Made by a program: the position numbers and the translations under genes. Shown here piece by piece: positions 41,131-42,057 of a DNA stretch of 64,000 nt. This DNA comes from Eledone cirrhosa (Eukaryota). The stretch's first letter is position 1; the number at the start of each line of letters is the position of its first letter. The notes under the pieces were generated by a model that had not been told where the DNA came from, did not search any database, and worked only from the letters and a program-made list of their open reading frames with translations. The stretch is taken from contig OZ024743.1 of the NCBI GenBank assembly GCA_964016885.1, positions 122,264,001 through 122,328,000 on the forward strand, written 5' to 3'.

Positions 41131-42057
41131 TATGGAAAATGAAGAATCAGTGATGCATCGGAGCACAATTTATTAACGTATTACAAATGTTTCTCCGGCG
41201 AAAAGCTCGAGGTGCGATCTATTTGTGGATCGAACCTGACTCTGGATTTGCAAGTTCCTCAGATACGTCTAGTGACTTCGAAGCCAATCCTCTGTCTGTT
41301 GGACCCCGACCCTTAGAATTTCTATCATCTGCCATCATCCTGTTTGCGCGGCTCGTCGATTGATCAAGAGTTAGAGACGTCATCTGTATGTTTGACCATT
41401 CAAAGCTGCCCACTGACCATTTCCATTCAGGCGTGAGCTGTCACTCACCTTTTTGCGGCGTTCTCCGTGTCACTGAACGACAGAAAGGAGCCCACCGCAC
41501 CGGCAGAACAACACCCAGCGAATCGGGAGAACGCCGCAAAAAAGCCAGGACCCCGCGTAAGGAATGAGCAACATACAGCCCGAACATGCAACTGCCGAGT
41601 GGGCACACAATGCCCTCTGCAGGGAAGTTGCATAACGAAGGGTGTTGTCTATAAATGCGTGGTTAGAACGCATAACACCAAGCGCACCTAAATCGGCGAA
41701 ACATCCACGACCTTTAAATCGAAGATGTACAATCACACGAACTCTTTCAAGGACCGGAGCAAGAGACACTCCACTAGAAAGTGGACCTGATATGGGACTT
41801 GAAGGACAGCGGCACCACGTACGATCTCAACTGGAGTATCGTTCAACGTGCTAATGCGTATTCTGCCGGCGAGGGGAAGTGCAGTCTGTGCTTGTCCGAG
41901 GCCATGGAGATCGTGAGATTAAAGGATTCGTTGATAAATTGTGTTCCGATGCATCATTGATTCTTCGTTTCCATATTATTATATTCTTCTCCGAAGGAGC
42001 ATAGGGTGCTCAACCGGCATACCGCCTATGGACGCATCCAAGCAACCTTACTACAAA
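41131..42057 (+). mobile_element. PLE remnant (GIY-YIG with CxCx5Cx5C linker) with inverted pLTR at its 5' side
   Basis: TCNCRVGTQCPLQGSCITKGVVYKCVV...IGETSTTFKSKMYNHTNSF...CSLCLSEAMEI. 41131-41165 is inverted at 41941-41976. (TA)n flanks. Confidence 0.88.
41176..41268 (-). ncRNA. Hammerhead ribozyme motif with 62-nt stem II
   Basis: Minus: acgtat-CTGAGGA-acttgc...gccgga-GAAA-catttg-TA-atacgt, with a perfect 6-bp stem I. Confidence 0.8.

Follow-up and report, generated by a model that had tools for sequence, protein, structure and literature searches.

Penelope-like elements (PLEs) of Eledone cirrhosa carry, in large numbers, a form of the PLE type I hammerhead that appears not to have been described before and in which a long stem II encloses a conserved module. 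The starting point was a window of 64,000 nt (contig OZ024743.1, positions 122,264,001 to 122,328,000), for which an initial annotation had proposed a hammerhead subfamily with about 60 nt in stem II. The subfamily holds up; stem II measures 57–62 nt in the 17 families that make up lineage A. We tentatively read the long stem II around the module as a binding handle for the element's own reverse transcriptase (RT)/endonuclease (EN) protein, with a probability of roughly 45%.

All five annotated long-stem-II motifs were recovered in place, every one on the minus strand (Table 1). Each copy begins with stem I and the core; 14 nt further on comes A(G/A)UC, then a hairpin and YGAG, and after another 12 nt GAAAC. 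A loop of 4 nt leads on to GUH and stem I, behind which most copies have AAUAAA. The internal loop letters are those that had been reported, AGUC/CGAG at 41.2, 51.0, and 7.5 kb, AGUC/UGAG at 10.3 kb, and AAUC/CGAG at 7.1 kb. The quoted helices are likewise present, except that the distal one at 41.2 kb contains a U.C mismatch and the proximal one at 10.3 kb a U.U mismatch. The five copies had been taken as divergent; those at 7.5 and 41.2 kb, however, belong to close sister families and are not independent examples. A pattern of core plus loop gave 3 matches in the window, and 0.01 were expected from 100 shuffles. Single copies fold no better than their shuffles (z −0.44 to −1.34). Hence, the structural support comes from covariation between families.

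Table 1 Features of the hammerhead copies and adjoining element remnants (positions within the window)
Feature	Position	Strand	Details
Type I hammerhead, 41.2 kb	41176..41268	-	Lineage A family F1, 62-nt stem II
Stem I, 41.2 kb	41263-41268 paired with 41176-41181	-	
Core halves, 41.2 kb	41256-41262; 41189-41193	-	CUGAGGA; GAAAC
Predicted cleavage site, 41.2 kb	between 41182 and 41181	-	After GUA
Conserved stem II module and distal hairpin, 41.2 kb	41205..41242	-	
Module pieces, 41.2 kb	G41242-C41205; 41241-41238; 41209-41206	-	Closing pair; AGUC; CGAG
Distal helix and loop, 41.2 kb	41237-41210	-	
AAUAAA and pseudo-LTR 3' end	41136..41175	-	AAUAAA at 41174-41169; abuts (TA)n tract
3' UTR sequence upstream of 41.2 kb hammerhead	41270..41450	-	Same inverted end-piece
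Junction of 41.2 kb end-piece with ORF fragment	near 41450-41467		
F1 remnant, broken Hydra-type PLE	41467..41930	+	Linker (CNCRVGTQCPLQGSC) and GIY-YIG-type endonuclease
Type I hammerhead, 51 kb	51000..51087	-	Lineage A family F2, 59-nt stem II; inverted end-piece
F2 remnant, broken Hydra-type PLE	51110..51880	+	Thumb/linker/endonuclease
Type I hammerhead, 10.3 kb	10311..10396	-	Lineage A family F3, 60-nt stem II, AGUC/UGAG; stem III loop GCGC, GUC triplet; family majority core CCGACGA
Type I hammerhead, 7.5 kb	7512..7604	-	Lineage A family F1c (sister of F1), 62-nt stem II
Type I hammerhead, 7.1 kb	7055..7145	-	Lineage A family F4a, 61-nt stem II, AAUC/CGAG; 8-nt core CUGAAGGA
Sixth lineage A copy, inverted F4a hammerhead	7203..7298	+	5-nt stem II deletion
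Type I hammerhead, 45.4 kb	45382..45503	-	Lineage B, 83-nt stem II

Judged from their sequences, the motifs are type I hammerheads with predicted self-cleavage and a palindromic stem III, followed by AAUAAA. Stem III loops are palindromic in 14 of the 17 lineage A families, stem I is only 3–7 bp long, and the triplet is GUA in 14 families and GUC in three. Two-sided pair changes in four of six stem I pairs and in all six P2a pairs fit three stems with the ends in stem I. AAUAAA lies 6–14 nt past the cut site in most families, and the element terminus lies some 40–50 nt beyond the predicted cleavage site.

The core halves CUGANGA/GAAA that had been assigned to all five copies are canonical in 12 of the 17 family majorities. 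The other five families, young ones included, have non-canonical cores, three with CCGANGA and two with a 1-nt insertion. The 8-nt core of the 7.1 kb copy is the norm of its family, and in the family of the 10.3 kb copy CCGACGA is the prevailing core. The core-closing pair 10.1-11.1 is formed in 9/17 families; mismatches at this pair are known in some natural hammerheads (PMC3088659). In section 8 of the same paper, an insertion after A6 is described as giving low activity in another hammerhead. Because of these altered cores and the low activity of the A6 insertion elsewhere, some of the non-canonical families may not cleave.

Two observations concern the core variants. The U4-to-C core CCGANGA is the usual form of families F1d, F3, and F4c and of loci L361 and L386, and it occurs in both lineages. 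It is likely the source state of those families because CpG decay would go in the reverse direction. The 8-nt core, noted at 7055-7145 in the window and in L397 and L241:9688, is found in the young families F4a (CUGAAGGA), whose best copies are 97–99% identical, and F4b (CUGAAAGA), and the sister family F4c has 7 nt. F4a and F4b spread despite a core insertion that is expected to slow cleavage.

The host elements match the definition of the Hydra clade by ORF motifs and targets. This clade is described as having a single ORF, the linker, no CCHH motif, and (TA)n targets (PMC8557442, section 11). Here, the ORFs comprise RT and, at the C terminus, an EN of GIY-YIG type, with DKT, RWK/RWR, and a CxCx5Cx5C linker and without CCHH, and the elements insert into (TA)n, with inverted 5'-truncated copies. 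The annotated link to Hydra-type PLEs is thus borne out. By locus, L397 (lineage A) has RWR and DKT, L391 and L392 (lineage B) have DKT, and L244 has RWK and DKT. In the translations, EN shows CxxC and CxH around E/N residues, for example CNCRAGTQCPLQGKC ... CRLC ... CRH. Pfam returned no family for four element proteins, and, among named proteins, the best homologues of the associated protein occur in Argonauta and Octopus.

The copies at 41.2 and 51 kb do adjoin EN remnants with the CxCx5Cx5C linker, as annotated, but in opposite orientation, with the hammerheads facing away from the ORF remnants. In longer copies, the hammerhead is on the ORF strand. It is in sense about 1.2–1.3 kb past EN in F1 (L182, L193, L207), about 65 nt past the stop in F2 (L040), and up to 2.9 kb downstream in F4. 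Hence, we consider the two window copies to be inverted end-pieces, which PMC8557442 describes as a normal PLE arrangement.

Other repeats occur in the window. The F2 element is cut off at 51880-52050 (+) by a different repeat with a short hammerhead-like motif, which occurs in many loci. ORF translations further reveal CCHH-type PLE EN pieces and several LINE-like RT fragments, located at 3450-4142 (−), 52.5 kb (−), 1197-2216, 31470-35346 (+), and 36100-37860 (+).

For the analysis of stem II, 228 of 290 distinct matches in the fetched loci were assigned to lineage A by overall identity; among the 62 dropped, three look like decayed members. The 17 families, with 2–62 copies each, come from one genome and share ancestry. 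Twelve were also recovered by loop-blind searches, and five were found only via loop-requiring patterns. P2a has eight positions, of which 2, 3, and 5–8 are paired in 15–17 of the 17 families with up to five pair types, position 4 is Y.Y or G.U in 16, and position 1 is paired in only 9. Outward of P2a, roughly 2 nt are bulged before a helix of 3 bp. Invariant in lineage A are the closing G-C, A, U, and C on one side of the loop with G, A, and G on the other, and a G-C two pairs farther out. The module lies 13–15 nt from the core on the 5' side and always 12 nt on the 3' side.

The helices covary, in agreement with the initial annotation. Over 20 natural lineage A copies, 86.8% of the cells are paired vs 73.2% in shuffles, and the covariation score is 0.438 vs 0.194, a value that none of 500 shuffles reached, in a control that ignores relatedness and for a structure drawn from the same sequences. 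Slid-register controls gave at most 0.141. The further claim that the loop is more conserved than the helices is also confirmed, since 6/8 loop columns but only 6/50 helix columns show zero changes on the tree (Fisher p = 5e-4). The invariance of the loop columns is the same within the 12 families also found loop-blind. Changes per column amount to 0.62 in the loop vs 1.2–3.6 in the helix groups. Within five families, by comparison, the loop decays like the helices (non-CpG 4.4% vs 4.6–6.2%). From this even decay, we infer that purifying selection on the module acts on the transposing masters only and not on genomic copies.

These results bear on whether the loop letters need a specific function at all. 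Shared ancestry, together with general selection for a folded arm, could have preserved them, given that the families are related members of one genome whose helix columns are still 53% identical on average, that part of the sample comes from loop-requiring patterns, and that single copies fold no better than shuffles. Yet the loop columns change far less than the helix columns on the tree, the loop-blind set included, and the frame recurs at a different place in the distant lineage B. We consider ancestry a quite improbable explanation.

The motif had been described as conserved and unpaired. The conservation stands; the unpaired state probably does not, as folding of the lineage A families favors a U-A pair and a C-G pair (mean probability 0.70 and 0.71) over U.G (0.04). 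The pair X-X' is C-G in 17/17 families of lineage A and covaries in lineage B. Hence, the module is better read as a G-C pair, A and R opposite G, a U-A pair, X-X', and a 1-nt bulge, and probably not as an unpaired 4x4 loop. Its general frame is 5'-G A R U X / Z X' A G C-3', which is kept while the helices change. By the sequences of both lineages, the invariant part is 5'-GARU/AGC-3' and not AGUC/YGAG. We presume that A, R, and U opposite A and G resemble an S-turn-like shape. The bulged-G or sarcin-ricin motif, AGUA/GAA, has a sheared A.G pair past the U.A pair. It was rejected because the position of the sheared pair is taken here by the covarying standard pair X-X'.

A long stem II is present as annotated, but other hammerheads share it. 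When 664 kb were scanned without regard to the loop, 78 hammerhead-like matches (about 6 per shuffle) with a stem II of 11–95 nt were obtained, and several of the long-stem-II families do not have the module. Hydra-like families with a stem II of 36, 38, and about 95 nt lack it. A strict scan for the module was passed by 7/18 long-stem clusters, compared with 2–8% of shuffles, and 4 of these 7 came from a pattern requiring the module. In families with an 85- or 91-nt stem II, its assignment is tentative, with weak outer helices.

Lineage B has a stem II of 73–83 nt and one copy in the window, at 45.4 kb. A search with the lineage B pattern returned 4,522 matches (control 25), and 3 of the 100 matches listed are lineage A. 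The frame is G-AGUX / ZX'AG-C; the 45.4 kb copy reads G ACUG / UUAG C, and its family form is AGUG/UUAG. In 12 copies, X-X' is G-U five times, G-C four times, and A-U, U.U, and C.U once each. The helices of these copies are 88.2% paired vs 78.6% in shuffles, with a covariation score of 0.398 vs 0.212. In lineage B, the module is separated from the core by P2a, a large internal loop, and a helix of 10 bp, whereas about 12 bp intervene in lineage A; the lineage B module is located about 10 bp farther out from the core.

The RTs of the two lineages are 46% identical. In an EN tree of this genome's EN domains only, lineage A is supported with 100/99 and lineage B plus the 91-nt family with 99/99. 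The module-less 36-nt family grouped weakly (80/83) with lineage B, and A and B were not resolved as sisters. One origin of the module with losses and two origins are both possible.

Several further observations concern hammerheads. The 10-bp helix of lineage B carries at its base another conserved element, GUAU facing UAGAC, which includes an A.G opposition. A hammerhead at 29832-29987 (+) in the window has 95 nt in stem II, which folds into a pair of hairpins and does not contain the module. It adjoins another Hydra-type EN remnant at 28844-29514 (−) and has relatives in L020, L248, and L027. A Hydra-type element with a 662-aa stop-free stretch (L244:8013-9998 (−) and L245) has a hammerhead with a 91-nt stem II about 1 kb downstream and a hammerhead-like motif (89 nt) 600 bp farther. 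Hammerhead-like motifs of other families, with a stem II of 13–53 nt, are located in the window at 8305-8363 (−), 8933 (+), 9480 (−), 22166 (−), 25048 (+), 26140 (+), 43845 (+), 44733 (−), 5141 (−), and 47229 (+).

No Rfam model was found to cover the motif, which the annotation had named as a condition for its proposal. Rfam gave no ribozyme match at E ≤ 10 at 41.1–41.3 and 50.9–51.1 kb or at E ≤ 1 on 10 further loci. For the whole window, the 150 of 271 matches that were listed contain microsatellite-driven miRNA matches only.

AGUC/CGAG beside a 3–4 bp helix resembles loop A of the hairpin ribozyme (NGUC opposite NGAA, 4-bp helix), in which A10G is tolerated according to PMC8216279, and the module could on this basis be a second catalytic site. 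G+1, however, is given as invariant in 941 hairpin ribozymes (PMC8216279), and it is A in 4/17 families here. In addition, the G8 equivalent is replaced by C or U in lineage B, loop B is absent, and Rfam shows no hairpin match. We regard a second catalytic site as very improbable. The hairpin ribozyme itself, characterized by invariant G+1, G8, C25, and A38 and by loops A and B, is also excluded by the variable G+1 and G8 equivalents and missing loop B.

Other known classes were rejected as well. Twister-sister-like (lantern) ribozymes are described as having 5- and 6-nt internal loops and a cut at a conserved CA (PMC11620745); the loop here has a 4x4 frame without the conserved CA. Antisense coding constraint does not apply, because the lengths of stem II differ by numbers that are not multiples of 3 and because the motif lies within the 3' UTR. 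In the alignments, read against the consensus motifs, a tRNA B-box is present only in F1-type families, and resemblance to SECIS, kink-turn, or leadzyme was ruled out.

The variant is abundant in the searched genome of 3.0 Gb. The exact AGUC-type pattern gave 5,589 matches (control 32) and the AAUC-type pattern 1,434 (control 26), which combine to about 7,000 lineage A copies (control 58). With a covariance model of 20 copies, 6 lineage A copies were detected inside the window and 5 in 600 kb of sequence from elsewhere; by extrapolation, the lineage A total is roughly 25,000 genome-wide. A loop-blind pattern gave 804 matches (control 1), and all 100 matches listed are lineage A-like by eye. 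A second loop-blind pattern gave 242 matches (control 0), with lineage A mixed with others. BLAST with F1 yielded 2506 candidates, of which 40 were scored, and a first look at the four window families yielded 606–2745 candidates each, again with 40 scored. The pattern CTGACGA..GAAACA was discarded, since its matches are mostly in an unrelated LINE coding region. Scans of metagenomes and viruses gave 61 and 55 pattern matches, of which 0/61 and 0/55 passed the helix filter, and contigs from two sequencing runs contributed nothing of use.

For the function of the module, the initial annotation had offered a tertiary contact or a protein-binding site. In the first case, the module would make an RNA–RNA contact in place of loop I–loop II docking, either by fold-back onto stem I or by docking in a dimer. 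Natural hammerheads usually need a contact between stem I and stem II (PMC6155905, PMC2777235), the geometry is fixed within lineage A, and the palindromic stem III loops would suit a dimer. In lineage B, the outward shift of the module by about one helical turn could leave it on the same face. However, stem I is short and has no conserved bulge or partner, the spacing of the module differs between the lineages, and metazoan PLE hammerheads are described as lacking tertiary contacts (PMC6155905). Apex-flank pairing in the 17 families has a mean of 4.0 vs 4.2 by chance; one family has a 7-bp match, and no pseudoknot exceeds chance in the other 16. Our analysis thus weakens the idea of a fixed tertiary contact, which we now find doubtful, and favors a protein-binding site.

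The bound protein might come from the host and act in export, 3'-end processing, stability, or ligation, with the hammerhead as a mere scaffold. An unchanging host partner would suit a module kept across RTs that differ as much as those of lineages A and B, and the AAUAAA shortly past the cut site in most families fits 3'-end processing. Against a host protein, no host motif was matched in Rfam and module-less families thrive in the same genome, which makes this explanation unlikely in our view.

We favor the element's own RT/EN protein as the binding partner because selection appears to act at the level of the element, the distance to the core is variable, no partner is available in stem I, and no pseudoknot is seen. 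The anole Poseidon PLE (PAc) adds to this, as cleavage there requires the PLE protein, which binds next to the hammerhead (PMC11167929). We propose that a long extension took the place of loop II on the original stem II of 8 bp (P2a). The module would be under purifying selection only in transposing copies and would thus serve the element, not the host. Recognition of the module by the element's protein would help to pick its own RNA near the start of reverse transcription. Cleavage would be slow, dimer-dependent via stem III, and helped by the protein, as in other metazoan PLEs, and protein binding could firm up a stem II with an often mismatched core-closing pair.

In the anole system, the hammerhead cleaves only when the PLE protein is added; cleavage is reported as dispensable for insertion in vitro, and no reads end at the cut site (PMC11167929). 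The hammerhead is next to the region of RT binding and initiation. The protein-binding region is mapped only coarsely, to somewhere in the initial 172 nt of an ORF that starts at stem II, and PAc has a canonical short stem II, unlike the long stem II here (PMC11167929). The module is not a universal RT handle since Hydra-like families here and published Hydra elements do without it.

A stricter form of the protein-binding reading is a protein-gated aptazyme, in which the RT-binding module in stem II would permit the cut only once the element's protein is bound. The reasoning is that a weak core-closing pair under a binding domain is the principle of engineered aptazymes (PMC2777235). These carry a ligand domain in stem II behind a weak linker, a comparable layout; they are artificial, however, and ligand switching here is a supposition by analogy. 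We rate such gating as unlikely.

Compared with the metazoan PLE pseudo-LTR hammerheads described in PMC4209133, those reported here are likewise type I, with a short palindromic stem III, a short stem I, a 3' position, and many divergent families per genome. A short palindromic stem III marks dimer-dependent, slow PLE hammerheads (PMC4209133, PMC6765202). In PMC4209133, by contrast, helix II has 4–8 bp and G10.1-C11.1 is conserved; here, stem II has 57–91 nt with internal elements and the module, and the 10.1-11.1 pair is not conserved.

The Hydra-clade PLEs of PMC8557442 share the host type (DKT, RWK-like motif, CxCx5C linker, and (TA)n targets). The Hydra hammerheads in its File S2 have about 25 nt or less in stem II plus loop, without extension or module. 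Among them, Hydra-1_oBim of Octopus bimaculoides has a stem II (AUGUCUA/UAGAUAU) that by eye looks similar to P2a of F5, which has the same G.U at position 4.

The initial annotation knew of no description of the architecture. In the title listings and abstract openings covered, it is not described; Repbase/Dfam or other cephalopod genomes may already contain such motifs. Two PLE hammerheads with a long stem II, PLE-X1_sMoe and PLE-X1_sTam from spike mosses, nevertheless appear in File S2 of PMC8557442, where about 50 nt separate the core halves and no comment is made on them. They are single examples from the Chlamys clade, starred as deviating; their listed letters do not contain the AGUC/YGAG frame, and no conserved module is described for them. 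The core-only descriptor published there allowed 7–17 nt. As annotated, short-stem-II searches miss the motif, which in this one genome amounts to at least 11,000 hammerhead-like motifs. Invertebrate hammerhead counts elsewhere may be too low for the same reason.

PLE reverse transcriptases are the sister group of telomerase. If the aptazyme reading is true, 3'-end processing would be coupled to reverse transcription, and the module would be the first cis motif defined as a recognition site of a PLE reverse transcriptase, an enzyme related to telomerase. The module is small and well bounded, with natural compensatory variants in two lineages and young families with near-intact ORFs; therefore, binding and cleavage assays are direct. 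The finding bears on the role of hammerheads in PLEs and on RNA recognition by PLE reverse transcriptases.
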